From assembly GCA_963772515.1 (NCBI GenBank), contig CAVYXC010000004.1, positions 361,131-425,130 of the forward strand: a stretch of 64,000 bases of DNA. Reading direction: 5' to 3'. Both the position numbers and the translations under genes were made by a program. Below are positions 1,920-45,152 of this stretch, one piece after another. The notes below the pieces were generated by a model. The model worked only from the letters and a program-made list of their open reading frames with translations, made no database searches and was not told where the DNA came from. Each line of letters starts with the position of its first letter. The first letter of the stretch is position 1. The stretch comes from Vulcanimicrobiota bacterium. Lineage in GTDB: Bacteria; Vulcanimicrobiota; Vulcanimicrobiia; Eremiobacterales; Eremiobacteraceae.

Positions 1920-1945
1920 ATGGAGCGGTCGAATTTATTCGACCG
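1920..1945 (+). repeat. Copy a of dispersed 26-bp palindromic element ATGGAGCGGTCGAATTTATTCGACCG, between convergent pfk and anti-sigma genes
   Basis: Exact consensus; 9-bp inverted arms CGGTCGAAT/ATTCGACCG with 2-nt spacer; recurs at 5 other loci in window. Confidence 0.8.
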
Positions 1946-2368
1946 TTAGCTGTGCGCCCGCCGGCGCTTGAGCAGGCGCACTGTCGTGCCTTTGCCCTCG
2001 CAGTTGTGCTCGACGCGATCCATCAGCGTGCGCATCAAGAAGATGCCCATCCCGCGATCCGGCATCCGGCGGCTCGAAGTTTCGGCCAACGTCTGAACGT
2101 CGAAACCAACGCCGTTGTCCGATACCTCGATGACCAGATCGATGCCGTCGAACGTGCAGCCGAGGCTGAAGTGCCCGCTGGGCACGTGGCCGTGCTCGGT
2201 GGCGTTGTTGCACGCCTCGCCGACGGCCAGCGCGATGTCGCACACGTCCGCGAAATCAAAGCCGCAGTCGATGGCGAAGTCGGCGACCGCATGACGTGCC
2301 TCCGCAACGGAAGTAAAAGCGCTCGGGTAGAGCGCGTTGAAGCCGTCTCGATCTCTTGATTCACGCAC
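1946..2368 (-). CDS. Anti-sigma regulatory factor, RsbW/SpoIIAB-like Ser/Thr kinase (HATPase_c)
   Basis: 140 aa; HATPase motifs (EACNNATEHG, SDNGVGF, GMGIFLMRTL) typical of RsbW-like anti-sigma kinases; no STAS partner seen nearby. Confidence 0.7.
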   Translation of the reverse strand: MRESRDRDGFNALYPSAFTSVAEARHAVADFAIDCGFDFADVCDIALAVGEACNNATEHGHVPSGHFSLGCTFDGIDLVIEVSDNGVGFDVQTLAETSSRRMPDRGMGIFLMRTLMDRVEHNCEGKGTTVRLLKRRRAHS

Positions 2369-2413
2369 GATCGATTGATCTATACCCGCAAGTCCGGGAC
2401 GTCAAACCGTCGT

Positions 2414-2983
2414 TCATAATTTCGTCTGTCGCGGCAAAAGTTGAGGCACGCCGGGCGGATATGAGCTCGGATGCTCGACCGCAAAGCGACGCGAAAGCGC
2501 GGCGAGGTACTCGAAATCCTCCCAGATCGCGTCGTCGCCATGCGCGAGCCGCTCGAGCTTCACATAGCCCTCCAAACGCCGCCACAGCCCGTCGATCGGC
2601 CCGCAGTACTGCTCGAAGAACAAGCGCTGGTCGACGACGCCGTTACGCACCAACGTGCCCATGACCTCGACAGCGTTGGCGATCATCAAAACGGCTTGGC
2701 GAAGCACTTCGTAGCGCTCGTTGCCGTGCGTCGCTCGCAGAGCCGCGTCGTCGGTGACGAACTTGCGGTACCCTTCGTCGTTCGAAAGATCGCCCTCGCG
2801 ATGGATCAGCGCCACAGCTTGCTGATGGGCGTCATCGTCGAGCATGGTGCGCAACGTGAGAAAGCCCGTGATCTGGTTGCTCGCCCGCAGGTGGCGCAGT
2901 TGCACGAGCGCCGCGATCGCTGACGCTCCGATGACGATCGCCGTCGCGATGGTCGCGATGGCGGTGATCAGTTCAAGCGACAT
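2414..2983 (-). CDS. Uncharacterised membrane-anchored protein, paralog B of the family, 45 bp upstream of the anti-sigma kinase gene
   Basis: 189 aa; N-terminal TM helix; VQLRHLRASNQ and WEDFEYLAALSRRFAVEHPSSYPPGVP motifs shared with paralog A. Confidence 0.55.
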   Translation of the reverse strand: MSLELITAIATIATAIVIGASAIAALVQLRHLRASNQITGFLTLRTMLDDDAHQQAVALIHREGDLSNDEGYRKFVTDDAALRATHGNERYEVLRQAVLMIANAVEVMGTLVRNGVVDQRLFFEQYCGPIDGLWRRLEGYVKLERLAHGDDAIWEDFEYLAALSRRFAVEHPSSYPPGVPQLLPRQTKL

Positions 2984-4226
2984 GTTCCCCCTTTGATCCT
3001 ACAGACGACCACGCCACCAGATTGACGCCGAAATAGTAGCCTAGCTCGCGATAATCGCTGATGTCCAGCTTCACCAGATCCGCAGGCCGGCCCGGCGCGA
3101 TGCAGCCGGCGACGCCGGCAGCATCAAGCGAGCGCGCCGCCATCACGGTGATACCGGCGATCACCTCAGGTGCGCTCATCCCTAGCCGGCGTCGAGCGAC
3201 GTGTGCGACCTCTTGCAGCGAGTAGCACGGACAGGTGCCCGGGTTGAAATCAGTTGCCAGCGCGACCGGAACGCCCTCGCCGATCAGCGCGCGCGCCGGC
3301 GCAAAGCGCGGCAAGCTGAGATACTGCGCCGTCGCCGGGCACAGCACCGCGATCGTGCCTGCGTCTCGCAGGTTAGCGATATCGGCATCATCGATGAAGT
3401 TGAGATGATCGGCCGTCATGCAGCGCAGCCGCGCCGCGAGTGCTGCACCGCCGCTTGCGCCAAGCTCGTCCGCGTGGATGCGCAGCTGCATACCGCGCGC
3501 CGCGCACGCTTCGAGAAAGCGTGCGCTTTGTCGCGGCGTGAAATACCCGCGCTCGCAGAACGCGTCGGCGAACCGGGCGATGCCCGTCTCGGCCGCTGCG
3601 GGAAGAATCGTCGCGATGAGCTCGTCGACGAACGCGTCGTAGGAGGTGAATTCGGGCGGCAGCGCGTGCGCGCCGCAAAACGTCGCGATGACGTGCGGTA
3701 TATCAGCGGCGCGATCCAACGAGGCCAACGCCTGGAGCGACCTGCGCTCGCCCGCGGGAGTGAGCGTGTAGCCCGTTTTGATCTCCGCCGTCGTCGTGCC
3801 ATGTTCGAGCATGGTGGCCAGCCGGCGTCGTCCGGCCTGGATCAATCCATCGAGATCGAGCGCGCGCGTCTGCTCGACCGTGTAGGCGATGCCCAGTCCG
3901 GGCGGCTCGCCGCGTGACAGCGCCTCGAAGTCGGCGACGCGGTCACCCGCGAAGAGCGCGTGGGTGTGCGCGTCGACGAACCCGGGCATGACGACGCACC
4001 CCTGCGCGTCGATCACCTCCACATCGGCATATGGAGCGGCCGAATCTATTCGACCGTGCATGACCTCCACGATCACGCCATCGCGCACGATAACGGTCGC
4101 GTCGCGCATGATGCCTAGATCGTCTTCGCCGACGCGGGCGTCGCCGTTGACGCGCGCCGCCAGCGGCGCCATGGTGAGCAGCGTCGCGTTGACGATCGCA
4201 TACGATGCCGCCGTCGGCGCTACCAC
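2973..4226 (-). CDS. hutI: Imidazolonepropionase
   Basis: ORF 2973..4319; amidohydrolase motifs (PGFVDAHTH, KTGYTL, IHADE); probable GTG start overlapping ftcD stop, alternative start at 4319. Confidence 0.8.
   Translation of the reverse strand: MVAPTAASYAIVNATLLTMAPLAARVNGDARVGEDDLGIMRDATVIVRDGVIVEVMHGRIDSAAPYADVEVIDAQGCVVMPGFVDAHTHALFAGDRVADFEALSRGEPPGLGIAYTVEQTRALDLDGLIQAGRRRLATMLEHGTTTAEIKTGYTLTPAGERRSLQALASLDRAADIPHVIATFCGAHALPPEFTSYDAFVDELIATILPAAAETGIARFADAFCERGYFTPRQSARFLEACAARGMQLRIHADELGASGGAALAARLRCMTADHLNFIDDADIANLRDAGTIAVLCPATAQYLSLPRFAPARALIGEGVPVALATDFNPGTCPCYSLQEVAHVARRRLGMSAPEVIAGITVMAARSLDAAGVAGCIAPGRPADLVKLDISDYRELGYYFGVNLVAWSSVGSKGEHVA
4031..4056 (+). repeat. Copy b of 26-bp palindromic element, antisense and in-frame inside hutI (encodes HGRIDSAAPY loop)
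   Basis: ATGGAGCGGCCGAATCTATTCGACCG, 2 mismatches to consensus. Confidence 0.7.
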
Positions 4227-5095
4227 GTCACCGCGCGCGGATCGATCGAGTCGAGATGGAGATAGTATGCGGCAGATTCGGCGATCGCTGAGAGCGGTGA
4301 CAGCCCGACCAATTCGCACCCGGCGACGGAGACGCCGGCGGCTGCCGCCTCGCGCCGGATCAGTTCGGTCACGCGATACAGCGGAATCGCATTGACGTCG
4401 ACGACGTTCATCGACACCTGGACCATCGAATCGGACAGCGCAAAGCCGAGTGCCTTGATGCCGACCAATCCGCCGCTGCGCCGGCGCACGGCAAGCGCGA
4501 TACGCTCGGCCAGTGCCAGATCCCCGCTGGCGAGGTTCACGTTGAAAGCGATGAGGAAGTTGCGCGCGCCGACCGCCACGATGCCCGCGCTTGGATGCAG
4601 CGCCGGTTCGCCCGTGTCGGGATGGCGCGCTCGATCTTTGACCGTCTCGATCAGCCCTTCGAACTGGCCCTTGCGCACGTTGCCCAAGTCGCGCCGTTCC
4701 GGCCGCGTCGCCGCGAACTCATAGAAGTAAGACGGCAGCTGGTATCGCTCCCACAGCTGCGCGGCGCACTGGCGCGCGAGCCCGACCGCGTCGTCCATCG
4801 TCGCGCCGCTCACGGGGATGAACGGGATGACGTCGACCGCCCCCATGCGCGGGTGCTCGCCGCTATGCGAGCGCAGATCGACGCGCTCGATCGCCGCGCC
4901 CGCGAGCCGCACGGCGGCGCCGAGCACGCCTTCGCCGCTGCCCACGAAGGTGTAGACAGAGCGGTTGTGGGCGCTGTCGCTTTGCGTGTCGAGCAACACG
5001 ACATCCGGACCGGCCGCCGCGGCGCCGATCGCCGCGATGACATCCGCGCGCCGGCCTTCCGAAACGTTAGGAACGCACTCGAAGACGCTTGCCAT
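4220..5095 (-). CDS. ftcD: Glutamate formimidoyltransferase (formiminotransferase domain only)
   Basis: Internal Met of ORF 4220..5995 ([16 protein letters not shown]...); FT-domain-like; N-terminal part of long ORF is antisense shadow of mccB; ATG verified at 5093-5095. Confidence 0.75.
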
Positions 5096-5164
5096 ATGCT
5101 TGGCGCTCCCGTTGGCCTCGTGCAGGCGCCGTCCCTTGCGAGACGTAAGTTGAGACGCACCACG

Positions 5165-6772
5165 ATGGCCGTCATAGAATCGCGCGTCGATCCCGCGTCG
5201 CCAGAGTTCGCCGCAAATCGCGAGCGCTTTGTGTCGCTGCTCGAAGAGCTTGCGGCGCGCCACGCGCTCGTCGCGCGCGGCGGCGTCGCTGAAGCGCTGG
5301 CAAAACACGTCGCGCGCGGCAAGCTGCCTGCGCGCGAACGCGTCGAGCTGCTCATCGACCCGAATTCCGCGTTTCTCGAGTTTTCCGCGCTCGCCGCATG
5401 GGATATGTACAAGGGCGACGCGCCGAGCGCCGGCATCGTCACCGGCATCGGGCACGTCGAAGGCGTCGAGTGCATCATCGTCGCCAACGACGCCACCGTC
5501 AAAGGCGGCACCTATTTCCCGCTGACGGTCAAAAAGCATCTGCGCGCGCAGGAGATCGCCGAGCAGAACCATCTGCCATGCATCTATCTGGTCGACTCGG
5601 GCGGCGCGTTCTTGCCGCTGCAGGACCAGGTCTTCCCGGACCGCGAGCACTTCGGGCGTATCTTCTATAACCAAGCGCAGATGTCGCGCAAACGCATCCC
5701 GCAGATCGCGTCGGTGATGGGGTCGTGCACCGCCGGCGGCGCGTACGTCCCCGCGATGTCGGATGAGACGATCATCGTCAAAGGCGAAGGCACCATCTTT
5801 CTCGGCGGCCCGCCCTTGGTCAAAGCGGCGACCGGCGAGATCGTCAGCGCCGAAGACCTTGGCGGCGCGGACGTGCACGCGCGCATCTCCGGCGTCAGCG
5901 ACCACTATGCGCTCAACGACCGTCACGCGCTCGCCATGTGCCGGGAGATCGTCGCCAACCTCAATCGCGCCAAGCGCACTCCCTGGCCGGTGCAAGAATC
6001 GCGTCCGCCCAAGTACGATTCACAAGAGCTCTACGGCATCGTGCAGCGCGATTGGCGCAAACCGTACGAAGTACGCGAAGTGATCGCGCGCATCGTCGAC
6101 GGCAGCGAGTTCCACGAATTCAAGACGCTCTACGGCGAGACGCTGGTGTGCGGCTTCGCCCACATCGAAGGCAACCCGGTGGGCATCTTGGCCAACAACG
6201 GCATCTTGTTCTCCGAAAGCGCGCTCAAGGGCACGCACTTCATCGAGCTGGCGTGCCAGCGCGGCGTGCCGCTCGTGTTCTTGCAGAACATCACCGGTTT
6301 TATGGTCGGTAAGAAATATGAAGAGGGCGGCATCGCCAAGGACGGCGCCAAGCTCGTGATGGCGGTGGCCAACGCGAACGTTCCCAAATTCACCGTCATC
6401 ATCGGCGGCTCGTTCGGCGCCGGCAACTACGGCATGTGCGGGCGCGCGTTTTCGCCGCGCCAGCTGTGGATGTGGCCCAACGCTCGCATCTCGGTCATGG
6501 GTGGCCCGCAAGCGGCCAACGTCCTGTTGACGGTCCGCCTCGAAGCGCTGGAGAAGAAGGGCGCGACGATGACCGAACAGGAGCGCGCCGAATTCATGCG
6601 TCCGACGCTTGAGAAATATGAGGCCGAAGGCAACCCCTACTATAGCACTGCGCGGCTGTGGGATGACGGCATCATCGATCCGGCCGACACGCGGCGCGTG
6701 TTGGGCATCGGCATCTCAGCTGCCGCCAATGCCCCGCTGGAACCCACGACCTTCGGCGTCTTTAGAATGTAG
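5165..6772 (+). CDS. mccB: Methylcrotonyl-CoA carboxylase carboxyltransferase (beta) subunit
   Basis: Internal Met of ORF 4595..6772 ([22 protein letters not shown]...); acyl-CoA carboxyltransferase family; final codons ATG TAG lie in palindromic element copy c1. Confidence 0.85.
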
Positions 6773-6782
6773 CGGTCGAATT
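6767..6782 (+). repeat. Half copy c1 of palindromic element (ATGTAGCGGTCGAATT), contains mccB stop codon
   Basis: Left half of consensus only; 9 nt upstream of full copy c2. Confidence 0.6.
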
Positions 6783-6791
6783 ACAGATAGG

Positions 6792-6814
6792 ATGTAGCGG
6801 TCGAATTTCGACCG
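6792..6814 (+). repeat. Copy c2 of palindromic element (ATGTAGCGGTCGAATTTCGACCG), in mccB-hydratase intergenic region
   Basis: Consensus arms with shortened spacer. Confidence 0.75.
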
Positions 6815-6830
6815 TTGAAGGAGTGAACCC

Positions 6831-7613
6831 ATGGCCGACAATGTGACGGTTGCTCGTGACGGCGGCGTCGCGCGCTTGACACTGAACAATCCGGAGAAGC
6901 GCAACGCATTCGACCCGACCATGATCCAAGCGATCAGAGGGATCTTCGATGGCTTCTCCCACGACGAAGCGCTGCGCGTGGTCGTTCTCGCCGGAGCAGG
7001 GCCCGTGTTCTGCGGCGGAGCCGACGTCAACTACATGCAGGCGAGTCTCGACATGACGGCCGACCAGAATCTCGAGGACTCCATGAAGCTCGCCGGCATG
7101 CTGCATGCCGTGAACGCGTGCCCCGTGCCGGTCCTCGCACGAGTTCACGGTGCGGCATTGGGTGGCGGAGCTGGCGTGCTCGCCGCGTGCGATCGCGTGA
7201 TCGCGGCCGACGACACGTCGTTCGGCTTCACCGAAGTGAAACTTGGCCTCGTGCCGGCCGTCATCTCACCGTTTGTGATCGCCAAGATCGGTGAGACGCA
7301 CGCCCGAGCGCTCTTCACCACCGGCGAACGATTCGACGGGCAACGCGCGCTGCGCATCGGGCTCGTCCATGACGTGGTCCCGGGGGCCAATCTCGATGCG
7401 GCCGTGCAGGCGGTCATCGGCGAAGTGCTCAGCGGCGGTCCAGCCGCCACGCGATTGGCAAAGGAGATCGCGCTTAACGTGCCGCGGCTCGCGCCGGAGC
7501 AAATCGGGCCGTGGACCGCGCGTCGCCTCGCTAACCAGCGCACCAGCGACGAAGGACAAGAAGGTCTGCGCGCGTTTCTTGAAAAGCGCGACCCCTCGTG
7601 GCGCCAAAAATAA
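6831..7613 (+). CDS. Enoyl-CoA hydratase (methylglutaconyl-CoA hydratase-like, crotonase family)
   Basis: 260 aa; crotonase fold motifs; position between MCC subunits; RBS GGAG upstream. Confidence 0.8.
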   Translation: MADNVTVARDGGVARLTLNNPEKRNAFDPTMIQAIRGIFDGFSHDEALRVVVLAGAGPVFCGGADVNYMQASLDMTADQNLEDSMKLAGMLHAVNACPVPVLARVHGAALGGGAGVLAACDRVIAADDTSFGFTEVKLGLVPAVISPFVIAKIGETHARALFTTGERFDGQRALRIGLVHDVVPGANLDAAVQAVIGEVLSGGPAATRLAKEIALNVPRLAPEQIGPWTARRLANQRTSDEGQEGLRAFLEKRDPSWRQK

Positions 7614-9565
7614 GACGTATCGAACGCCTCCTTATCGCCAATCGCGGTGAGATCGCGGTGCGCATCGCCCGCACGTGCCGCGCGATGGGCATCACGTCGA
7701 TCGCCGTCTATTCGGACGCCGACGCCGAAGCGCTGCACGTGCGCGAGTGCGACGAGGCGCTGCGCATCGGTCCGGCGCCCGCGCGTGAGTCGTACCTCGA
7801 TATCGGCAAGATCGTCGCCGCCGCTCGCGGCTCGCGCGCGCAGGCCGTTCATCCTGGCTACGGATTTCTCTCCGAGAATGCCGATTTCGCTCAGGCGTGC
7901 CTGGACGCGCAGCTGACCTTCGTCGGCCCGCCACCCGCGGCGATGGAGGCGGTCGGCGATAAGATCGCAGCCAAACGCACGGCGGCGACGGTCGGCGTCC
8001 CGACCGTGCCCGGTTATCTGGGCGAGCAACAAGACGTCGACGTGTTCGTCCGCGAGGCCAAGCGCATCGGCACGCCGCTTATCGTCAAGGCCGCAGCGGG
8101 CGGCGGCGGCAAGGGGATGCGGCTGGTGCGCGACGTGGCGCAACTGCGCGACGCCCTCGAAGGCGCGCAGCGCGAAGCGTGTTCGGCGTTCGGCGATGGC
8201 ACTGTTTTCCTCGAGAAATACTTGGAGTCGCCGCGCCACGTCGAAGTGCAGATCCTGGGCGATCGTCACGGCGCATACGTCCACCTCAACGAGCGCGATT
8301 GCTCTATCCAACGCCGCCATCAGAAGATCGTCGAAGAAACCCCTTCGCCGGCGGTCACGCCACAGCTGCGCGGCGAGCTCGGTGCAGCGGCGTTGCGCAT
8401 CGCTGCGGCGGTCGGTTATGAGAATGCCGGCACCGTCGAGTTCATGCTGACTCCGGACGGGTCGTTCTACTTCCTCGAAGTGAACGCCCGATTACAGGTC
8501 GAGCATCCGGTGACCGAGATGGTCACGGGCGTCGATCTGGTGCGCGAGCAGATCGAGATCGCAGCGGGCGGGAAGCTTCGACTTGCGCAAGGTGACGTCG
8601 CGCCACGCGGCCACGCGATCGAAGCGCGCATCTACGCCGAGGACCCCGACAATGGTTTCTTGCCCTCAAGCGGGCGCGTGCTCGACGTGCACTGGCCGTC
8701 TGGCCCGGGGATCAGAGTGGACGCGGGCATCGACGCTGGGTCGACGGTGACGACCGATTACGACCCGATGTTGGCCAAAGTCATCGCGCATGGTGCGTCG
8801 CGCGAAGAGGCGCTTGGCCGTCTGCAAACGGCGCTGCGCGAGTGTCACGTGGCGGGGATCTCCACCAACGTCGGATTCCTGCGCTGGCTTGTCCACGAGC
8901 CGGACTTCGCGGCCGGCAAGGCGGCCACCGATTTTCTCGACACGCATCGCTGGCCGGGTGCAAGCGTAGACCCCGACAACGAGGAGCTGTGGGCGTTGGC
9001 GGGAGCGGGCACGCTGCAAACGCTGGGTTCCTGGCGGCCGGCTCCGCAGCCTCGCACCATACGTTTCGTCGGGCCCGCCGCCCACACGATCGATGTGACC
9101 TTCGACTGGCGCACCGGCGGGTGGCGCTGCCGCGAAGGAGAGCGCGAGGCGATCGTGCGAGCGGCTGGCAAGCCCTCGCACTTCGACGTGCTTGAGTCAG
9201 CGCAGCCGCACCGAGCGCGCGCGTGGCGCACCCGCGACGGCGTGGAACTCGCCGTCGGCGAGCCGCCGCAGCGACGTACATACACGGTCGACGCCCTCGA
9301 AGACGTCGCGCACGCTGGCGCGCATGCCGCCGCGCGCGCGGGTTCCGGCTCCGCGACCGCGCCGATGAGCGGCACGGTGGTGAAGATCGAATGCGCGCCA
9401 GGTGCGCCCGTGAGTGCGCACCAAGTGCTTGCCGTGATCGAGGCGATGAAGATGGAACACGCGATCGCCGCGCCCTTCGATGGCCGCGTGCGTTCGGTCA
9501 ATGTCCGGACGGGCGATCGCGTCGATGCCGGCGCGGTGCTCGTCGAGATCGAGCCGGCGGCATGA
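7598..9565 (+). CDS. mccA: Methylcrotonyl-CoA carboxylase biotin carboxylase + BCCP (alpha) subunit
   Basis: 655 aa; LIANRGEIA N-terminus; C-terminal biotinyl motif EAMKMEH; GTG start overlapping hydratase end. Confidence 0.85.
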   Translation: MAPKIRRIERLLIANRGEIAVRIARTCRAMGITSIAVYSDADAEALHVRECDEALRIGPAPARESYLDIGKIVAAARGSRAQAVHPGYGFLSENADFAQACLDAQLTFVGPPPAAMEAVGDKIAAKRTAATVGVPTVPGYLGEQQDVDVFVREAKRIGTPLIVKAAAGGGGKGMRLVRDVAQLRDALEGAQREACSAFGDGTVFLEKYLESPRHVEVQILGDRHGAYVHLNERDCSIQRRHQKIVEETPSPAVTPQLRGELGAAALRIAAAVGYENAGTVEFMLTPDGSFYFLEVNARLQVEHPVTEMVTGVDLVREQIEIAAGGKLRLAQGDVAPRGHAIEARIYAEDPDNGFLPSSGRVLDVHWPSGPGIRVDAGIDAGSTVTTDYDPMLAKVIAHGASREEALGRLQTALRECHVAGISTNVGFLRWLVHEPDFAAGKAATDFLDTHRWPGASVDPDNEELWALAGAGTLQTLGSWRPAPQPRTIRFVGPAAHTIDVTFDWRTGGWRCREGEREAIVRAAGKPSHFDVLESAQPHRARAWRTRDGVELAVGEPPQRRTYTVDALEDVAHAGAHAAARAGSGSATAPMSGTVVKIECAPGAPVSAHQVLAVIEAMKMEHAIAAPFDGRVRSVNVRTGDRVDAGAVLVEIEPAA

Positions 9566-10464
9566 CGTATCCGGATCGGGTGACCGTCGTCGAGGTCGGG
9601 CCCCGCGATGGTCTGCAGAACGAACGCGTCGAAATCGCGACCGACGTCAAAGTGAGCTTTATCGACGCCCTCTCGGACGCCGGACTGCCGGTGATCGAAG
9701 CCACCTCGTTTGTGAGCCCGAAGGCGATTCCGCAGCTGGCTGACGCGGATCAGGTGATGCGCCGCATCGTGCGGCGCCCCGGCGTGCGATATCCGGTGCT
9801 AGTCCCCAACGAGCGCGGTCTGGAGCGCGCGCTCGCGGCGGGCGCGACCGAGATCGCGGTCTTCACGGCTGCCTCCGAAGAATTCAACCGGCGCAACATC
9901 AACGCGACGATCGACGAATCGATCGACCGCTTCGTACCCGTGCTGGCGCGTGCCAAGCGCGACTCGATACGCGTGCGCGGCTACATCTCGATGTGCTTCG
10001 GCTCGCCTTTCGATGAGACGATCGCACCGAAGCGCGTGCTCGAGGTAGCGCGGCGCTTGGATGCGCTTGGCGTCGACGAGATCAGTATCGGCGACACGAT
10101 CGGCGTAGCGACTCCGAACCAAGTCGCAGACCTCGTCGCGATGCTGACCAAAGACATCGACGTCGGCCGGCTCGCGATGCACTTCCATGACACACGCGGC
10201 ACCGCGTTGGCCAACGTGTTGGCCGCACTGCAAGCCGGCATTTCGATCTTCGATTCATCAGCCGCCGGCTTGGGCGGCTGCCCGTATGCGCCGGGTGCGA
10301 GCGGCAACCTCGCCACCGAGGACTTGGTCTACATGTTGCACGGCATGGGAATCAAGACCGGCGTGTCGCTCGAGGGGGTGGTCGCCGCGTCCACCTTGAT
10401 CGCGGCGGTGCTCGACCACCCGCCGACAAGCAAGTACTATCAGGCGGTAGCAGGCGCGCGATAA
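9562..10464 (+). CDS. hmgL: Hydroxymethylglutaryl-CoA lyase
   Basis: Internal Met of ORF 9223..10464 (MTYPDRVTVVEVGPRDGLQNE...); HMGL-like; ATGA overlap with mccA stop. Confidence 0.85.
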   Translation: MTYPDRVTVVEVGPRDGLQNERVEIATDVKVSFIDALSDAGLPVIEATSFVSPKAIPQLADADQVMRRIVRRPGVRYPVLVPNERGLERALAAGATEIAVFTAASEEFNRRNINATIDESIDRFVPVLARAKRDSIRVRGYISMCFGSPFDETIAPKRVLEVARRLDALGVDEISIGDTIGVATPNQVADLVAMLTKDIDVGRLAMHFHDTRGTALANVLAALQAGISIFDSSAAGLGGCPYAPGASGNLATEDLVYMLHGMGIKTGVSLEGVVAASTLIAAVLDHPPTSKYYQAVAGAR

Positions 10465-10465
10465 C

Positions 10466-11005
10466 GTGTGGAACACGTTAACAGACTATCTGAGGCGTTT
10501 GCCGCCCGTTCCACGAGCGGCGATGATCGGCTACTTCGCAATCGCAGGGTTGCTGCTCGCCAGCACGGTGTTCGCGCTGGTCACCCTACTCTGGCAGGTC
10601 GGCAGGATGCCGTCGGGCGGCCGCCTATTCGTTCTTGTGTTACCGCTCGCGCTATACGCCATCATGCGGTTATACAGCCATCTCGTCATGATCCCAGCGT
10701 CCATATACCTGCGCACGCAGGCGAGCGGAGGCGATGAGCCGATCGGCATGGACCGCGAGCCGGATCGAGATCGGGTGCAACAAAGGCTTGAGGCGGTCGA
10801 TGCTGTCGGCGGCGGCACGCTCGCATGGATCGACGACGGCGTCAGGGACTGGCTTGCGAAGCCGCCCGGCGCTGAAAAGGACCGCGCGCGCAACGCGCTC
10901 CTAGACCGGCTCTACGCATACTCTGCGTCCTCGACTGGCGATCACGTGCAGCGCAAAGCCGTCAACGACTTGCGACTCGCGATCAACCCTTGGGTGAACG
11001 ACTAG
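10466..11005 (+). CDS. Hypothetical membrane protein
   Basis: 179 aa, GTG start; two predicted TM helices; start sits in palindrome TAACGTGTggaACACGTTA. Confidence 0.4.
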   Translation: MWNTLTDYLRRLPPVPRAAMIGYFAIAGLLLASTVFALVTLLWQVGRMPSGGRLFVLVLPLALYAIMRLYSHLVMIPASIYLRTQASGGDEPIGMDREPDRDRVQQRLEAVDAVGGGTLAWIDDGVRDWLAKPPGAEKDRARNALLDRLYAYSASSTGDHVQRKAVNDLRLAINPWVND

Positions 11006-11009
11006 ACGT

Positions 11010-11759
11010 CTAGACCGGCACGTCGACGGTCGGCGGCACGTCCCACAACAACACTTCGCCCGAACCGCTCAACGCGACCGACGGCACGCCGCCGATCCGC
11101 ACCGCATCACCGCTGCTCAACTGCGCGCCGTTGGCCGCGACGTTTCCATCGGCTACGAACAAGAAGCCGAGGCGCGACTGCCCGAATGAATAATCGAGCA
11201 CGCCGTTGTCGAGCCGCGCGACGCGAAACGATGCGTTCTGCGTCAACGTCACCGGCGCTGTCTCGCCGGGGGCGCCGCTGGCGACGAGCAGCCACTTGTT
11301 GTGGCGATCGGCGGGTTTGAAATCGCACTGGCCGTACGACGGCTTCACGCCTTTGCGCCCCGGCAGTACCCACATCTGCACGAGGTGCAGCGGTTCAGAT
11401 GCGGACGGATTGGTCTCCGAATGCCGCACGCCCGTGCCCGCGCTCATGTACTGCACGCCGCCCGCTTTCACCGTGCCCTCGTTGCCGATGCTGTCCTTAT
11501 GCTCGAGCTGGCCGCTGAGCACGAAGGTCAGGATCTCCATATCCTTGTGCGGATGCGTCGGGAAACCCGACGCGGGCGCGATGTTGTCGTCGTTGAGCAC
11601 GCGGAGCGCACCCCAATTGAGGTTGCGCGGATCGTAGTACTCCGCGAAGCTGAACGAAAAGCACGACTTGAGCCAGCCGTGATCTGCGCAGAAGCGCTCG
11701 CCGGCTCGCTGAATGGCAAAGGTGCCTGATTTGCCTGCCATCGTCTCTATACTATCCAT
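11010..11759 (-). CDS. Pirin family protein (cupin)
   Basis: 249 aa; pirin-like motifs (GFPTHPHKDMEI..., MWVLP). Confidence 0.75.
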   Translation of the reverse strand: MDSIETMAGKSGTFAIQRAGERFCADHGWLKSCFSFSFAEYYDPRNLNWGALRVLNDDNIAPASGFPTHPHKDMEILTFVLSGQLEHKDSIGNEGTVKAGGVQYMSAGTGVRHSETNPSASEPLHLVQMWVLPGRKGVKPSYGQCDFKPADRHNKWLLVASGAPGETAPVTLTQNASFRVARLDNGVLDYSFGQSRLGFLFVADGNVAANGAQLSSGDAVRIGGVPSVALSGSGEVLLWDVPPTVDVPV

Positions 11760-11871
11760 ATGTTATCCATCGTCCGTTTGCTAGGCCGGGCGCGGGGTAT
11801 CGTCCTTCTTTCTCAGGCCAAACCCAGCGGAAAGCCCCCTGCCGTCAGAGAACGCGCGCGCTCGGAGGGCC

Positions 11872-14800
11872 ATGAAAATCGGTCACACGTCCGCGCGCGT
11901 ATTACTTGCAGCCGGCGCCATTCTCGTGTCCGGTCTATCCTCGCCCCCCGCCTCCGCGGACAGTGGCGTGCTGGGCGACCTGCATTGGCGCTCGATCGGC
12001 CCGGGCCAATCCGGCGGCCGAGTGGCCGCGGTCGCTGGGACGAACGCCGACCCCTACCTCTATTATATCGGCGCGGCCGACGGCGGGGTGTTCCGCACCG
12101 ACAACGGAGGCGTGACCTGGGACGACGTGTGGGCGCGTCAGCCGGTCGCAGCCATCGGCGCGCTTGCAATCGCGCCGTCGGACAAGCGCACCGTCTGGGT
12201 GGGCACGGGCGAGTCGAAGCCGCGCAACGACGCGTCCTACGGCGACGGCGTGTGGCGCACGACCGATGCCGGCGCGAGCTGGTCGCATCGCGGTCTCGAA
12301 CGCTCGTACATCGTCTCGCGGCTGCTCATCGATCCGAAGAACCCCGACGTCGTTATCGCGGGCGCGCTCGGGAATCCGTTTCGTGACAGCGCCGATCGCG
12401 GCGTCTACCGCACGACCGACGGCGGAGTGTCCTGGCGTCACACGCTCTACGTCGGTCCGCAAAGCGGCGCGTCCGACATGGCATGCGACGCGCATTGTCA
12501 CCTCGTGTTCGCCGGCATCTGGCAGTTCCGGCGCCAACCGTGGACGTTCACCAGCGGCGGACCCGATGACGGCATCTACCGTTCGACCGATGGTGGCGTT
12601 CACTGGAGCAAACTGACTGGCCATGGCTTACCGTCAGGCTTGATGGGGCGCATCGGGCTGGCCGTCGCGCCGAGCGATGCTCGTCGGGTGTACGCGCTGA
12701 TCGAATCTCAGCAGGGCGTGCTGTGGCGCTCAGATGACGCTGGCTCACACTGGCGTTTGATGAATCGCGACGATGCGCTCAACCAACGTCCGTTCTATAT
12801 GACCCGTCTTGAAGTTGATCCGCGCAATGCCGATCACGTGTATTTCATGTCAGAGGATCTGTTCGAGTCCAAGGACGGCGGCAAGACGTTCTCGCAGCTG
12901 AAGTCCGCGCTGCATCAAGACCATCACGCGATGTGGATCGCGGCCGATGGCACGCGCATGATCGAAGGTGATGACGGCGGTGCCCCGATCAGCGTCGACG
13001 GCGGCGTCACCTGGGAGTGGCGCTACAATATCGCGATCGGTCAGATCTACCATCTGGGCTACGACACGATGAATCCGTACCACGTTTGCGGCGGCTTCCA
13101 GGATAACGACTCGTTTTGCGGACCCGCCGATAGTCTTGATCCGCTCGGCATCCTGACCGCGAACTGGCGCGACGTCGGCAATGACAGCGACGGCATCGTC
13201 ACGATACCCGACGTGCTCGATCCCGATATTGTCTGGAACGTCGGCGTCAAGGATCTCAACGGCCAGCTCAACACGTTCTTGCTCAACGCGCGCCAGAGCT
13301 ACGACGTGTCGCCCTACGCACGCGACACCAACGGAATGGCGCTTGCGGGCTTGCCCTACCGCTTCAATTGGGAGGCGCCGCTGGCGATTTCGAGCCTCAA
13401 CCCAAAGACCGTGTACTTCGGCGGCAATGTGCTCTTCAAGACGATTGATTACGGCCGCACGTGGCAGGTGATCAGTCCAGATCTCACGCGCGACGAACCC
13501 GCGCATCAGCAGGCCGCCGGCGGCGCGGTGACGCTTGACGTCTCGGGCGCGGAGTTCTACGACACGCTGCTGAGCATCGCACCGTCGCCGCTCGACGCGA
13601 ACGTGATCTGGGTCGGAACTGACGACGGTCTGGTGCAAGTGACGCGAGACGGCGGCGCGCACTGGAGCCTCGTCGCGCCGCCTGCCCCTCCGTACGGCCG
13701 CATCGAGAACATCGAAGCCTCGCCCTTCGCAGCCGGAAGCGCGTTCGCGACCGTCGATCGCCACTTCATGGGCGACCGCACGCCCTACGTCTTCACGACG
13801 GACGACTACGGCGCGACGTGGCGTTCTATCGCAAGCGGTTTGCCCGCGGAACAGTACGCACACGTCGTGCGCCAAGACCCGCGAAACCCGGACGTCCTCT
13901 ACCTCGGTCTCGAGCAAGGCATTTGGATCTCGTTCGACCGTGGTGCGCACTGGCAAAGCTTGCAAGGCGACCTGCCGGTGACCGCGGTGCGCGACCTCCG
14001 CGTCCAGCCGACCGCCGACGATCTGCTCGTCGCCACGCATGGGCGCGGTTTTTACATCCTCGACGATTTGACGGCCCTGCAGGCATTGACCCAGGCGCGC
14101 GCAGCTGGTAACTATCTGTTCGCTCCGCGCACCACGTACGCGTGGTACCGCGGATGGTACACGATGTACGGCGTCGGGGAAGGCGAAGGCAGCGCGCCTG
14201 CGGGCCAGTTCGCGGGCGAGAATCCGTCCGATGGCGCGATCATCACGTACGAGCTCGCGGCAACCCCAGGGATGAAGCCGCAGATCAGCTTTCTCGACGC
14301 GAGCGCGCACCCGGTGCGATTGCTGGTCGGATCGGACCATCCGGGTCTCAATCGACTTGCCTGGAGCCTGACTGAAGAGCCGCCGATCAAGTGGAAGTCG
14401 GTCAAGGAATGGAACCAGGGACCTGACGACGGAGCGGCCGTTCCTCCTGGCCAGTATACGGTTCGGCTGTGCGTCAACGGCAAGGCGCTCGAGCAGCCGC
14501 TCACGATCCAGGCCGATCCGCGCGCGCCGTGGACGCAATCGGACTACGTGGCGCGCTACGTCTTCCTGCACGCGCTCAACGGCGAACTCTCGCAGATCGA
14601 CGCCGAGCTCAATACGCTCGACTACCTAACGGGAAAAGCGCCTCTCGACGCGAGGGGGCGATCGCTGTACGAGCAGCTGACCTCGAATCCGCTCAACGCC
14701 GAAGACGACCAGCACCGTCCGGATCGGCTGCGCGAACGCATCCAGATCCTACTGGATGATCCCGCGCTCTCGCAAGGGCCGCCCACGCAGGCACAACTCG

Positions 14801-14922
14801 CCGAAGCCGCGGCGATTAAATCGCAGTTCGATGTCCTGATGCCAGATGTTCAGCGCTACCTAAGCACACGCGGCGTCGCGACGCTGTACGTCACGACGGC
14901 CGACGTCTGCCCGCGCTCCTAG
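11872..14922 (+). CDS. Secreted BNR/Asp-box repeat protein (sortilin/VPS10-like or GH74-like beta-propeller)
   Basis: 1016 aa; signal peptide; at least 8 Asp-box motifs (S/TxDGGxTW). Confidence 0.7.
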   Translation: MKIGHTSARVLLAAGAILVSGLSSPPASADSGVLGDLHWRSIGPGQSGGRVAAVAGTNADPYLYYIGAADGGVFRTDNGGVTWDDVWARQPVAAIGALAIAPSDKRTVWVGTGESKPRNDASYGDGVWRTTDAGASWSHRGLERSYIVSRLLIDPKNPDVVIAGALGNPFRDSADRGVYRTTDGGVSWRHTLYVGPQSGASDMACDAHCHLVFAGIWQFRRQPWTFTSGGPDDGIYRSTDGGVHWSKLTGHGLPSGLMGRIGLAVAPSDARRVYALIESQQGVLWRSDDAGSHWRLMNRDDALNQRPFYMTRLEVDPRNADHVYFMSEDLFESKDGGKTFSQLKSALHQDHHAMWIAADGTRMIEGDDGGAPISVDGGVTWEWRYNIAIGQIYHLGYDTMNPYHVCGGFQDNDSFCGPADSLDPLGILTANWRDVGNDSDGIVTIPDVLDPDIVWNVGVKDLNGQLNTFLLNARQSYDVSPYARDTNGMALAGLPYRFNWEAPLAISSLNPKTVYFGGNVLFKTIDYGRTWQVISPDLTRDEPAHQQAAGGAVTLDVSGAEFYDTLLSIAPSPLDANVIWVGTDDGLVQVTRDGGAHWSLVAPPAPPYGRIENIEASPFAAGSAFATVDRHFMGDRTPYVFTTDDYGATWRSIASGLPAEQYAHVVRQDPRNPDVLYLGLEQGIWISFDRGAHWQSLQGDLPVTAVRDLRVQPTADDLLVATHGRGFYILDDLTALQALTQARAAGNYLFAPRTTYAWYRGWYTMYGVGEGEGSAPAGQFAGENPSDGAIITYELAATPGMKPQISFLDASAHPVRLLVGSDHPGLNRLAWSLTEEPPIKWKSVKEWNQGPDDGAAVPPGQYTVRLCVNGKALEQPLTIQADPRAPWTQSDYVARYVFLHALNGELSQIDAELNTLDYLTGKAPLDARGRSLYEQLTSNPLNAEDDQHRPDRLRERIQILLDDPALSQGPPTQAQLAEAAAIKSQFDVLMPDVQRYLSTRGVATLYVTTADVCPRS

Positions 14923-17900: not shown

Positions 17901-18161
17901 ATAGCCTTCCTTCACCGCGGTCACGCGGTACGTGTCGGGCGCAAGGTTCAAGAACGAGAAGAAGCCGGTCGCGCTCGAGAGCGTCGAGGAGGCCTGTGAG
18001 GGCGATGTGACCGTCACTTTCGCTCCCGCGATGGGGGCGCCGTGATCGTTTTTCGTAGTGCCGGAGATGACGCCGGTCGTGCCGGCGTCGGCGGCGAGCG
18101 GTGCGATGGCCAATACGAAAGACAGGGCGAGCGTTAAGCCCCTAAAGCCACGAAAAAGCAT
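14919..18161 (-). CDS. TonB-dependent receptor-like outer-membrane protein with N-terminal carboxypeptidase regulatory-like domain
   Basis: 1080 aa; signal peptide; CarbopepD_reg-like N-domain; plug-like region (LFIRGGSNDQVGFELEGIPLN); very long beta-rich C-terminus; RBS GGAGGG. Confidence 0.65.
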   Translation of the reverse strand: MLFRGFRGLTLALSFVLAIAPLAADAGTTGVISGTTKNDHGAPIAGAKVTVTSPSQASSTLSSATGFFSFLNLAPDTYRVTAVKEGYAPVTLPGITVLADQNARVEIVMQVTIRTLGRITTTAAAGLVSKSVTGDLYTVSSQAMNQYQGSVGGAETLYSQNAIVGSLPGVTRTVGTGGGYAGNGSLFIRGGSNDQVGFELEGIPLNRAFDSANATAFLTNGLSSLEVYTGGEPADAGRSMSGYINEIIHRGSYPGGADVSLVIGTPLLTNAVQADVYGGTSNRKFNYYISTLWVNGGYNFGNRSNLDNSTINIPANDVGCPAVAFTTGNITCPNTATSFNIPISQGAWTSFPNPSARMTNTVFNLNWSIDHNGLSDDLQALYMVGATVNPFLYSGPFVDPTTVANCGYEVALSNPCPTPPAPMVWPYGVLYTGRPGQLFNPSPGNLYTLTWPSAGGSTGDMPPNYLDTQRTQSAIEKIGYTRALTSSSFLRLYGYAIYSLWNFDQATNAWLGDSFYDLHDNEGGLTANYQNQLSQQHLLRADVDYLQERSLRYNYANNFPYPDDFVNCFPSTTVDYSIGAGSLDYGCSNFYNSATPEAVAQINGPFAYYNNISPTSWDAAIADTWRPSDRWTFDIGARYDLFVVPLMPLQITGPNGIAEQAENQSGTCLHGYAYAPTEICAVFLNASGPSGDGTFGASALPGAGNWTNVSGSLSYNYFSPRFGATYSASPNDVFRFSVGRYVQPPATAYEEYIAAPQWGATATVAVLNNFYDGLGFTAVHNVLPQDSTNYDASYEHDFANSFSIKVSPYYRVTRNQILNLPVNPLQPTFETGYNFGAARVSGVEFLARDSHVGDGWSGTFAATYTDSKIRFEAPLGGTNFIDTINTQISNYNSAYGTNYPLFDPNAYYKPSLFESPGNTGSSYDVAWVINLNATYQTHGWDVSPTFNYQSGNPYGDPLLFPDPQGKVTYGPDPYTKQFDGLGSFNGPWWLTMNLAVSHDVAKNIKASILYTNVFTIVGNRGYPWEYPASKQVVSYEDNFFYANAPFGQFNPAYVGESYYPYGPGSINPYHQLVFSLSTKI

Positions 18162-18234
18162 GAGAACCCTCCGGCGACAATCGCAGTGCGAAGGATAATG
18201 AGCTCTTAAGGGTGCTGTACTGCCCGCGGGACGG

Positions 18235-18250
18235 TGTGACCTGCATCACA
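18235..18250. promoter_or_regulatory. CRP/FNR-type palindrome TGTGAcctgcaTCACA about 75 bp upstream of receptor-like gene start
   Basis: Perfect TGTGA-N6-TCACA match; no cognate regulator identified in window. Confidence 0.3.
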
Positions 18251-18328
18251 CCGCGGACGTACGACGCCGGAAATCCTTGCCGAAAATCTTTCGGGCAACG
18301 CTCTCAGCATCGCCCTTCGACGCGATGT

Positions 18329-40720: not shown

Positions 40721-40746
40721 ATGGAGCGGTCGAATAAATTCGACCG
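40721..40746 (+). repeat. Copy e of palindromic element (ATGGAGCGGTCGAATAAATTCGACCG) at 5' end of gltX
   Basis: Consensus with AA spacer; encodes MERSNKFDR in gltX frame. Confidence 0.75.
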
Positions 40747-42260: not shown

Positions 42261-42806
42261 ATGGCGGAGCTGACGCGCGCGCGCTTTCTGGGGTTTGTAG
42301 CCGCGACATTCGGCATCGCTGAGATGTCGGAGCGGGCGAGTGCGGCAGTGAAGATTGAGGACCCCACTGGTTTCACCTTTGGTCCGATGGTGAAGGACCT
42401 CGCGCTCGGCGTGAAACTCGAAAACCAGGCCGTTGACGTCGGTGCGCCAATCGCGTGCACGTTGGCCATAAAGAATTTCGGGCCGCCGCGACACATCTTC
42501 CGGGTCGGCGCGATGGAAGAATACGCGCTCACGGGCACCGGTCCGCGTGGTGCTTCGATCGAGCACGCTGGTCCCGGTGACCCCTTCGCCGGGAGCATCT
42601 CCGCCGATGGACCCTACCTCGAGACTGGGCAGGCATACGAGAAGAGTACAGCCGATCTCCGTAAGAGCTACGATTTCAGCGCGCCAGGCGAGTACACGTT
42701 TTCATTTGCAACCGTGATCACCCAAGGCCTGGGAGGTCCCTGGTATGCGGCCTTGACGTCGAACACCGTGACGTTGGACGTGCGCAATGCGGCGACACAA
42801 CCTTGA
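42261..42806 (+). CDS. Hypothetical secreted protein
   Basis: 181 aa; hydrophobic N-terminus with RxR motif; no recognised domain. Confidence 0.4.
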   Translation: MAELTRARFLGFVAATFGIAEMSERASAAVKIEDPTGFTFGPMVKDLALGVKLENQAVDVGAPIACTLAIKNFGPPRHIFRVGAMEEYALTGTGPRGASIEHAGPGDPFAGSISADGPYLETGQAYEKSTADLRKSYDFSAPGEYTFSFATVITQGLGGPWYAALTSNTVTLDVRNAATQP

Positions 42807-43023
42807 CGGCGACTCGCTTCCAGCAGGCCGGAGGGCGGCCACGCCTAGCGCGCGAACCCATTGTCATCATGGCCACCGCAGACAACCCTGCCCTCCCCCG
42901 CCCGGCCATCGCCCCGTCCTGTCGTTGTTGACCGGCGCTTACGCCACGCCCGGTCGCGCGCCCGCCGCGCGCATGTGAAAGAAGAAGCCCGCGCGACGCG
43001 CGGGATGCGAGCAGGACGAAACC

Positions 43024-43701
43024 ATGCAACGAGACTCCATCTTCCGGCAGATACGCCTCGACTGGCGCGCGTGCTTTGAGCGCGACCCCGCGGCGCGCAA
43101 CTGGCTCGAAGTGCTGCTGGCCTATCCGGGTTTTCATGCCCTCTTCTGGCACCGGCTGATCATCCATCCGCTGCACCGCGCCGGCATACCCGTCATTCCG
43201 CGCGTGCTGTCCAACATGTCGCGGTTTTTCACCGGCATCGAGATCCACCCGGGCGCGGAGATCGGCTCGGGTCTGTTCATCGATCATGGCATGGGCGTCG
43301 TGATCGGCGAGACGACCGAGATCGGGCGCAACTGCACGCTCTATCAAGGCGTGACCTTGGGCGGCACGTCGCTGCAGCGCGGCAAGCGCCACCCGACGCT
43401 TGAAGACAACGTCATCGTCGGCGCCGGCGCCGGCATCATCGGCGCGGTGGTCATCGGCGCCGGTTCGAAGATCGCGGCGGGGGCGGTCGTCGTCAAATCG
43501 GTCCCGCCGAACTGCACGGTTGTCGGTGTGCCTGGCCGCGTGATCTATCAGGACGGCAAGCCGGCCGAACCGGTGTTGCCGCGTGTGGACATGCCCGACC
43601 CCGAAGCGGACGCGATCGCCGCGCTGCAGCAACGGGTCGAGGCGCTCGAGATGGGCTTCCGAAAGCTCGAAGAGCCGGATGGCAGTAAGACTCTACAATA
43701 G
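43024..43701 (+). CDS. cysE: Serine O-acetyltransferase
   Basis: 225 aa; hexapeptide repeats; SAT N-terminal domain. Confidence 0.85.
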
Positions 43702-45152
43702 CCGCACCCGGTCCCTCGAAGAGCTCCAGCCGCTCGAACCCGGGCGGCTGACGATGTACGTGTGCGGCATGACGCCCAGTTTTCACCCGCATCTGGGTCA
43801 CGCGCGCACGTTCTTGACGTTCGACGTCTTGCGCCGTCACCTCGCCGCGCGCGGCTACAAGGTCGACTACGTCCAAAACGTCACCGATATCGACGACCGC
43901 ATCATCGAGCGCGCCGCCACCGAAGGCGTGCCCTGGGACGACGTTGCCACTCGTTATCTGGCGGAGTACGAGGCGTGCGCCACAGCGGCTCGGGCTTATA
44001 CCGCCCGATGACGAACCGCGCGCGACTCAGGAAATCTCTTCCATTATAGAGCTCATCTCGGGGCTCGTCGCCAAGGGCGCGGCGTACGAGTCGGGAGACG
44101 GCGTCTATTTCGCGGTGGACGAGGGCGTATTTCCGCATTACGGTGAGCTCAGCCACCAGAGCATCGAAGAACTGCGCGCCGGCGTGCGCGTCGCCGTGCG
44201 CGAGGATAAGCGCGGGCGGTTGGACTTCGCGTTGTGGAAGAAGGCCAAGCCCGGCGAGCCGAGCTGGCCGAGCCCCTGGGGCCCCGGCCGGCCGGGCTGG
44301 CACATCGAGTGCTCGGCAATGGCGCGCAAGTATCTCGGGGATCAGATCGACATCCATGGCGGCGCCGCCGACTTGATCTTTCCGCACCACGAGAACGAAG
44401 TCGCGCAGACCGAGACGTTCACCGGCAAGCATCCGATGGCGAATTTCTGGGTGCATGCGGGATTGCTCAACGTCGACGGTCAGAAGATGAGCAAGTCGCT
44501 TGGCAACTTCACGCCGCTCACCCAGATGCTCGACCGCTATCCGGCGGCCGTGATCCGCTACCTGTTCCTGCAGACCGGCTATCGCAAACCGAGCAACTTC
44601 ACGGCTGACTCGATCGAAGCGGCGGGCAAGGGATTGCGCGGGCTGTACGCCGACCTCGACAAACTCCGCGCCCGCGCGCGCCTAAACCCCATGGAGCGGT
44701 CGGATTCATCCGACCGGCAACGTGAGAGCGCGATCGAAGAATTCAACGCATTTCTCGATGACGACCTGAACACCGCGGGCGCCATCGGCTGGCTGCAGAC
44801 CTATGTGAAGCCTTCGATTAAAGATCGTACAGGGGCCGATGTTGTTGCCGTCGTCGAGCAGGCGCTCGAACGGCTTGGCCTGCCGGTGGACGCCGAGAAC
44901 GCCGGCGTCGCTGCGACGTCATCGCAGCTCAAGTTGAGCAAAGCGGCGCGCATGGAGTTCTCGATCATCACCGGCGATCGCGACGCACCCGACGACGACT
45001 TGGTCTCAAAGGTCGTCGCGATCCGCGAAAAGGCGCGCAAGTCCAAAGATTGGGCGCAGTCGGATCGTCTGCGCGACGCGCTCGCGCGCGCGGGCATCGC
45101 GGTCAAAGACACCGCGACGGGTTCGCAGTGGAGCGTCGATGGCGGCAGATGA
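43679..45152 (+). CDS. cysS: Cysteine--tRNA ligase, interrupted by apparent +1 frameshift near 43980-43990
   Basis: N-part in ORF 43583..44011 (MAVRLYNSR...HLGHART), remainder in ORF 43944..45152 (PPDDEPRAT..., KMSKS); removing one nt around 43984 restores a continuous class-I motif alignment; contains in-frame element copy f. Confidence 0.75.
44691..44716 (+). repeat. Copy f of palindromic element (ATGGAGCGGTCGGATTCATCCGACCG) in-frame inside cysS
   Basis: Arms carry compensatory A>G/T>C changes preserving perfect 9-bp inverted repeat; encodes [10 protein letters not shown]. Confidence 0.75.

Follow-up and report, generated by a model that had tools for sequence, protein, structure and literature searches.

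A 26-bp hairpin unit is dispersed through a 64-kb stretch of contig CAVYXC010000004.1 (the window, meaning this whole stretch at its full length; its genome is denoted W). This repeat, called family 1 below, is likely to be a family of repetitive extragenic palindromes (REPs) that belongs to the GTAG-tagged superfamily and resides in Candidatus Eremiobacterota. Under this explanation, the unit would be, or would once have been, mobilized as single-stranded DNA by a REP-associated tyrosine transposase (RAYT) of the HUH/Y1 type, which would bind the hairpin and read the tag in front of it. The lineage-specific form of the tag, GTAG or GGAG, would reflect co-evolution with the transposase, and a hairpin located behind a stop codon could, once transcribed, act as a stem-loop at the mRNA 3' end or between cistrons, by analogy with other REPs. 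Novelty is limited to this consensus and this phylum; the class has been described before, as have nearly all of its behaviors. Some residual novelty lies in the GGAG tag, the switch of the tag at the same site, the replacement of one family by another, and the predominance of singletons and head-to-tail tandems.

Copies and structure of the hairpin

Family 1 is a high-copy dispersed unit with unrelated flanks. Exact matches were found on both strands in at least 69 8-kb stretches of species-representative genomes, and all the genome matches listed come from two metagenome-assembled genomes (MAGs) of Candidatus Eremiobacterota, MFD05705.bin.1.164 (U) and MFD05705.bin.2.76 (V). A scan of JGI metagenomes added at least 120 further contig stretches. 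Full copies were counted in 1.39 Mb of DNA from the two MAGs and many soil-type metagenome contigs, the individual stretches of which bear L numbers below; there are 307 of them. The motif is therefore abundant outside the window, and not confined to it, a possibility that the preliminary description of this DNA had considered. Its occurrence in independent assemblies also contradicts an assembly artefact. Beyond the 26 bp, different copies have unrelated sequences, save for the AT dinucleotide preceding the tag, which is present in 258 of the 307 copies (84%).

The unit consists of the head ATG(G/T)AG, a 9-bp stem with the left arm CGGTCGAAT, a 2-nt loop (TT in 170 and TC in 106 of the 307 copies), and the complementary arm. 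The tag adjoins the stem and is never paired, and all six head bases remain unpaired in the predicted fold. Folding of both DNA and RNA, proposed earlier as a check, predicts a stable hairpin in either case: as single-stranded DNA, the consensus pairs over 8-9 bp with an energy of -8.5 kcal/mol (z = -5.7), and its predicted energy as RNA is -10.7 kcal/mol, with z values across folds of about -4 to -6. One of the window copies, copy b, folds weakly (-4.5 kcal/mol as DNA).

The hairpin is kept by compensatory changes. Across 37 distinct variants, 98.5% of the stem cells are in standard pairs, and changes on both sides occur at three stem pairs (8 cells), a number reached in none of 500 shuffles. 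The compensated variants are CGGTCGGAT/ATCCGACCG, CGGTCGAGT/ACTCGACCG, CGGTCGACT/AGTCGACCG, and CGGCCGAAT/ATTCGGCCG. The strongest single case is provided by orthologous copies in the cysteinyl-tRNA synthetase gene cysS, where W has CGGTCGGAT/ATCCGACCG and L086, which is 87-89% identical, has CGGTCGAGT/ACTCGACCG; both stems are perfect, so two different compensated pairs occupy the same coding site. The first of these pairs was described correctly in the preliminary description, which took it as a sign that structure is selected rather than a protein half-site. This view stands, as the stem positions covary, and such covariation is not predicted by a half-site model. Among uncompensated single changes, G-T wobbles are about equally frequent on either strand, and thus the data single out neither strand, nor DNA versus RNA, as the selected hairpin.

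In the window, a search with the 26-mer ATGGAGCGGTCGAATTTATTCGACCG at up to three mismatches places copies on the plus strand at 1920, 4031, 22111, 40721, and 44691, and 100 dinucleotide-preserving shuffles of the window contain no match. A minus-strand match at 40727 is the palindrome of the copy at 40721 reading back and not a separate copy. A covariance model built from the 37 distinct copies recovers the five 26-bp copies and a sixth at 6792-6814 (E <= 2e-4) and no further strong copies in the 64 kb; half copies at 6767 and 22081 score weakly. The total, all on the plus strand, is five full 26-bp copies, one shortened 23-bp copy, and two half copies, which bears out the earlier count of six full and two half copies and corresponds, for the six, to about one per 10 kb. 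Every exact occurrence of the arm CGGTCGAAT in the window falls within an element.

Copy a (1920-1945) reads ATGGAG-CGGTCGAAT-TT-ATTCGACCG, copy b (4031-4056) reads ATGGAG-CGGCCGAAT-CT-ATTCGACCG, copy d (22111-22136) is a full consensus element, copy e (40721-40746) reads ATGGAG-CGGTCGAAT-AA-ATTCGACCG, and copy f (44691-44716) reads ATGGAG-CGGTCGGAT-TC-ATCCGACCG. The 23-bp copy c (6792-6814) reads ATGTAG-CGGTCGA-ATT-TCGACCG. The half copies c' (6767-6782, ATGTAGCGGTCGAATT) and d' (22081-22099, ATGGAGCGGTCGACTTTAG) consist of the head and the left arm, and each stands in a head-to-tail tandem with a full copy, in the case of d' with copy d. A common head and a 9-bp inverted repeat had been ascribed to all copies. 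The head ATGGAG is indeed shared by the five 26-bp copies, but c and c' carry ATGTAG; the 9-bp repeat holds for most copies, but the stem of copy c has 7 bp and that of copy b contains one uncompensated mismatch (CGGCCGAAT/ATTCGACCG).

Directly after copy d, at 22144-22163, lies a related hairpin without a head and without an assigned strand, CGGCCGAA-CGAC-TTCGGCCG. It is a weak match to the covariance model (E about 2-4) and resembles the element stem with a compensated T-to-C/A-to-G change; it could represent the decayed remains of a third unit in the copy d cluster. No family-1 copies were seen past 44716 in the window (45000-64000). Over the last 6 kb of the window (58000-64000), where few confident genes were called, G+C drops to 0.55-0.58, compared with about 0.65 before. 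The segment 45000-64000, especially 58000-64000, may be foreign or otherwise atypical.

Orthologous sites, a second family, and transposase traces

The tag is lineage-specific, being GTAG in one genome and GGAG in two others. GTAG is carried by 35 of the 38 copies of U, whereas GGAG is found in 58 of the 67 copies of V and in all five 26-bp copies of W. The window shares 75-82% identity with its orthologous stretches in U and V, and 84-89% with some metagenome contigs. At three shared sites the tag differs, with GTAG in U versus GGAG in the window or in V; orthologues of copy a have the head ATGTAG in L039 (from U) and in L156.

The unit is gained or lost as a discrete segment of about 26-31 bp without target-site duplication. 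A copy of U (L026 7266) corresponds to a 31-nt gap in the V orthologue, which otherwise runs through (L033), and a copy of V (L058 6253) corresponds to a 30-nt gap in U (L069); no target-site duplication is visible at these two filled/empty site pairs. Such clean unit-sized indels at orthologous loci, where a comparison of presence and absence had been suggested in the preliminary description, do not fit an ancestral sequence free of indels. Other orthologous sites of U and V are in part common to both, and some carry decayed or internally deleted remnants. As for the window copies, b has no family-1 counterpart in V, c has a full orthologous copy in L016 (3864-3889), and d is identical in the 85%-identical relative L082, from which the half copy d' is absent. 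Orthologous copies are about 89% identical versus 62% for their 40-bp flanks (the underlying table includes one mis-paired comparison, which is to be ignored), indicating that the copies are constrained or homogenized.

A second GTAG-tagged palindrome, family 2, coexists with family 1 in all three genomes. Its consensus is GTAG-N2-CCCGAGC-N3-GCTCGGG, with the stem (C/A)CCCGAGC and a 3-nt loop, and it occurs at least 24 times in 616 kb of the comparison DNA (L009, L012, L016 6624, L019, L022, L031, L039, L040, L054, L057, L063, L066, L069 1107, and others). At two orthologous sites family 2 replaces a family-1 copy. One is L058 5459 versus L069 1107. The other is a surface loop of an imidazolonepropionase-like (hutI-like) protein (window 3990-4110), which exists in three states, namely family 1 on the plus strand in W, a degenerate family-1 unit in the opposite orientation in L156, and family 2 in V (L016, about 6600-6660). 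The presence of different REP states points to this loop as a site of recurrent insertion or replacement. The window itself contains a family-2 copy at 46679-46703 on the plus strand (GTAG-GACCCGAGC-CAC-GCTCGGGTC), located 22 nt past a sigma-factor gene (46010-46657).

The differences of tag at the same site, the swaps of family and orientation, and the 89% versus 62% identity could mean that copies at orthologous sites are not passively inherited, but that overwriting or re-insertion keeps them matched to a recognition protein specific to the lineage. We advance this only as a speculative reading, and its being wrong is the likelier outcome. If true, the lineage would be a natural experiment in REP-RAYT specificity switching, and the switching would work on single units that duplicate head-to-tail, not on inverted doublets.

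Candidate RAYT genes were sought by motif regular expressions and by tblastn with an E. coli YafM (RAYT) sequence as query in 616 kb and then in the 1.39 Mb. The tblastn search gave one weak match, at L141 1016-1132 on the minus strand (metagenome contig Ga0187846_10000148). It is a 39-aa remnant of a RAYT C-terminus (YILDNPVRAGLV), the stretch encoding RSYRVTEEYPKYILDNPVRAGLVREPSDYPFSRIVDLWY, and it matches the last 26 positions of the NCBIfam family REP_Tyr_transpos with E = 2e-6. The remnant is flanked by inverted family-2-type GTAG REPs, and the same contig also holds a family-1 copy. The stretch looks like a decayed REPtron. A homology search with a 43-aa version of the remnant found nothing, and the orthologous position in V (L051 1395-2002) is occupied by an unrelated gene of lower GC, which encodes a small secreted protein. 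The genes enclosed by oppositely oriented family-1 copies were also considered as transposases and rejected, since they are ordinary genes encoding an SPFH protein, a signal peptidase, ribosomal proteins, and a Uma2-type endonuclease. The endonuclease gene (PD-(D/E)XK-like, L067 2185-2862, between two oppositely oriented copies), identified by reading its protein sequence, is the sole nuclease-like gene in such a bracket. A link between REPs and a RAYT is plausible in this lineage, with support of an indirect kind, and unproven for family 1.

Placement in and between genes

Gene calls were made with a simple codon-usage caller prepared for this analysis, which is adequate for stops and less reliable for starts. 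Placement could be classified for 268 of the 307 copies, the other 39 lying at contig edges. While 183 of the 268 are intergenic, 85 fall within called genes, and as 90% of the DNA is coding, genic copies are strongly depleted. Copies tend to follow a stop codon within a few nucleotides, and most have the orientation of the upstream gene. Between unidirectional genes there are 108 intergenic copies, 81 co-oriented and 27 opposite (p = 2e-7); convergent pairs hold 58 of the 183 intergenic copies versus 24 expected from the number of spacers; and divergent pairs, with 17 of the 183, are depleted. The median distance from the stop of a co-oriented upstream gene to the head is 10 nt. The stop codon is provided by the TAG of a GTAG head in 21 cases, and its last A also belongs to the head in 14 cases.

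The window copies illustrate this range of contexts, and the earlier description of them as lying in spacers, within coding sequences, and across gene boundaries proves accurate copy by copy. For instance, copy a fills 26 of the 29 nt between the convergent stops of a phosphofructokinase gene (570-1916, plus strand) and an anti-sigma-type kinase gene (1946-2368, minus strand). The methylcrotonyl-CoA carboxylase beta gene (4595-6772, plus strand) ends in the TAG of c' (6770-6772), which serves as its stop codon, and copy c lies 16 nt upstream of the start of an enoyl-CoA hydratase gene (6831). Copy d is situated in the divergent spacer between the genes for histidine ammonia-lyase (20517-22049, minus strand) and cytidylate kinase (about 22215-22928, plus strand).

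A minority of copies is tolerated in frame within genes. Among the 85 genic copies, 53 are more than 60 nt away from either gene end, so that about 20% of the classified copies are deep in coding sequence. These copies avoid frames containing a stop codon: 14 of the 28 co-oriented ones read as MERSNLFDR, and 22 of the 25 opposite ones as x-G-R-I-N/D-S-T-A-P. Copy f is in frame in cysS and encodes MERSDSSDR in a variable linker after the catalytic domain; in the V orthologue (L059) the head is unchanged and a 6-bp in-frame deletion comes after it. Copy b, inside the minus-strand hutI-like gene, is read as HGRIDSAAPY in a variable N-terminal loop, and the Bacillus subtilis structure 2bb0 has a loop of similar length at the aligned position. 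We considered and rejected a net insertion in cysS or hutI relative to solved structures, as in both genes the residues of the element align with a loop or linker that varies naturally and is about as long; they take the place of sequence and do not simply add to it. In the window, cysS is split into two overlapping frames (43583-44011 and 43944-45152), with the change of frame right after EYEACA, where the V orthologue is continuous. The split stems either from an error of 1 nt in the assembly or from a real frameshift or pseudogene.

Copy e, at the boundary of ispF and gltX, begins 20 nt past the ispF stop. It keeps the gltX frame and encodes MERSNKFDR, a peptide located at the GltX N-terminus or close to it. 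L086 contains no start codon in the interval that separates the element from the conserved RFAPSPTG motif of gltX, and the differences between W and L086 from copy e to this motif are mostly synonymous; together, these observations indicate that copy e is translated. Its ATG may be the gltX start codon, the alternative being a TTG that overlaps the ispF stop.

The positions right behind stops and the 3:1 co-orientation with the upstream gene would also be expected of terminators or RNA-stability stem-loops that are kept by the host and, without any transposase, propagate by recombination or originate where they stand. The better conservation of orthologous copies compared with their flanks and the failure to find a cognate RAYT in the 1.39 Mb agree with this explanation as well. 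However, no T tract follows the stem, the bases 3' of which are unconserved, and the element is thus not a canonical terminator. A terminator scan of positions 1-20000 flagged none of copies a, b, and c, no Rfam match at gathering score was obtained anywhere in the window, and a tRNA scan gave nothing at the elements. Moreover, many copies lie inside genes or precede the next gene of what seems to be an operon by 8-28 nt. Near-identical 26-mers with a conserved unpaired head at hundreds of unrelated loci, together with unit-sized indels, require a copying mechanism, and we regard an origin of this kind without a transposase as improbable. A role of the hairpin in RNA is compatible with the REP explanation and is not an alternative to it.

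Orientation bears on another explanation, that family 1 is a host signature motif, either a DNA uptake sequence or a replication-oriented motif similar to Chi or KOPS, kept for uptake, repair, or segregation. The 26 copies that lie between 1.66 and 2.17 Mb on the 2.37-Mb contig of U all occupy the minus strand, as such a motif would predict, and a frame preference is seen among the copies that fall in coding sequence. In Neisseria, inverted pairs of uptake sequences form hairpins behind genes, which also favors this possibility. However, about 80% of the genes in the same region of U are on the minus strand too, so that the all-minus run is largely explained by co-orientation with upstream genes. 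Copy orientations are mixed along the contigs of V, and copies at convergent sites, which are not bound to follow an upstream gene, match the local majority gene strand in just 16 of 23 cases (p = 0.09). Further, the arm CGGTCGAAT never stands alone in the window, and the density of copies there is far below that of uptake sequences. We therefore consider a signature motif very improbable. The GC skew in the loci is near zero, and a replication-linked bias of orientation is not separable from a transcription-linked one in these data. The uniform orientation noted in the preliminary description holds within the window, where it is a local pattern; genome-wide, both strands are occupied.

The perfect 9+9 palindrome and the position of copy d in a divergent promoter region could suggest an operator of a dimeric transcription factor, with the copies marking its regulon. 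The low number of copies between divergent genes contradicts this, as most copies are located 0-30 nt after stops or between convergent genes, and about a fifth are deep in coding sequences. In addition, hundreds of copies stand beside functionally unrelated genes, the stem covaries, the asymmetric head is conserved, and whole units are gained or lost between relatives; an operator is thus extremely improbable. Finally, a MITE (miniature inverted-repeat transposable element), which would likewise be small, dispersed, palindromic, and polymorphic between relatives, can be dismissed almost entirely, since the whole unit is 26 bp of hairpin and tag with no terminal inverted repeats around a body, two site pairs lack a target-site duplication, and an unpaired tag at one end is typical of REPs.

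Implications and relation to known repeats

Several observations weigh against the explanation of family 1 as a tagged REP family mobilized by a RAYT. An intact RAYT or Y1 transposase, or one flanked by family-1 copies, was not found in the 1.39 Mb. The GGAG tag is not named in the text of the survey by Di Nocera, De Gregorio and Rocco 2013 (PMC3733652). The organization of multiple units is also unlike that of REPINs in Pseudomonas fluorescens and BIMEs in E. coli, with which family 1 shares the hairpin class and the coexistence of more than one REP type. The published REPIN/BIME and REPtron models stress inverted pairs, whereas about four fifths of the family-1 copies are single, and pairs closer than 100 bp are head-to-tail in 31 of 36 cases and inverted in five. 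Three of these five inverted pairs are single double-headed palindromes. Double-headed versions were seen at L005 4300-4331, L013 5468-5499, and L038 4883-4914, and in L154 and L166; here the head is mirrored after the right arm (in L013, TTGTAGCGGTCGAATTTATTCGACCGCTACAT), producing a palindrome of about 32 bp that matches both strands.

The identification of family 1 as a REP family would extend tagged REPs to a soil phylum with hardly any cultured members, Eremiobacterota (WPS-2), and would leave the general picture of REP biology unchanged. How a REP-associated transposase reads its tag could be tested simply with pairs of genomes that have GTAG and GGAG at orthologous sites. If the repeat is not recognized, automatic annotation of these MAGs will misplace gene ends or report odd insertions, because stop codons and probably a start codon are provided by the element, which also lies in frame in cysS, gltX, and the hutI-like gene. 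The 26-mer could also be used as a lineage marker for binning and strain typing.

Classical RPE-1 elements, the Rickettsia palindromic elements (RPEs), are about 100-150 bp long and encode 30-50 residues. Family 1 is similar to RPEs in that, where its copies are in frame in essential genes, a loop or linker gains a short peptide or has one replaced, but it is 26 bp long, encodes about nine residues, is mostly extragenic, and differs in sequence. Thus, of the likeness to RPEs drawn in the preliminary description, the in-frame genic behavior remains, and size and sequence do not agree. The text of the survey files RPE-4 and RPE-6 with the CGTC-tagged superfamily and not with the GTAG one (PMC3733652). 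Of the label REP/MITE applied in the same description, the REP half is upheld by anatomy, copy number, placement, covariation, and genic copies, and the MITE half is not.

In the REPtron of E. coli and Pseudomonas, RAYTs recognize the hairpin and a 5' tetranucleotide tag, according to Nunvar 2010 (PMC2817692), Messing 2012 (PMC3479197), and Corneloup 2021 (PMC8266576). The lineage studied here resembles this system in having a RAYT C-terminal remnant flanked by inverted GTAG REPs; it differs in that these REPs belong to family 2, not family 1, and that no intact RAYT was found in the 1.39 Mb.

The closest relatives of family 1 are the GTAG REPs. The text of the 2013 survey sorts REPs of more than 80 species from eight phyla into GTAG- and CGTC-tagged superfamilies, the former including the REPs of E. 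coli and Pseudomonas and the SMAGs of Stenotrophomonas (PMC3733652). Neither the stem CGGTCGAAT nor, as said, the GGAG tag is mentioned in that text, figures aside, and the literature searched contains no mention of REPs in Eremiobacterota or of the family-1 sequence, in line with the earlier remark that the consensus was not recognized as a described element. Three features depart from the text of the survey: G at position 2 of the dominant tag in two of the three genomes, the extra conserved AT before the tag, and dimers that are nearly all head-to-tail, the type called rare there; inverted dimers dominate most published families (PMC3733652).

In other respects the agreement with the GTAG superfamily, as far as the text of the survey describes it, is close. 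GTAG REPs are units of 20-40 bp with stems of 6-13 bp and loops of 2-3 nt, often 'TY', and family 1 has a 26-bp unit, a 9-bp stem, and a TT or TC loop. The superfamily is characterized by an unpaired tag at one end, degenerate at positions 2-3 in some families, and by subfamilies that differ in complementary stem changes (PMC3733652); family 1 has a one-end unpaired tag, of which GGAG is a variant, and is a high-copy dispersed repeat with unrelated flanks and compensated stem variants. GTAG REPs sit between unidirectional and convergent open reading frames, about 20 bp or less from the upstream stop, donate TAG stop codons, and have in-frame intragenic copies, including those in tRNA-synthetase genes (PMC3733652). 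Family 1, likewise, is mostly extragenic at unidirectional and convergent sites, lies near the upstream 3' end, provides TAG as a stop, and has in-frame copies within genes. Finally, several GTAG REP families can occur in one genome, and their RAYT genes, flanked by repeats, are sometimes lost (PMC3733652); a second family is likewise present in the genomes that carry family 1.

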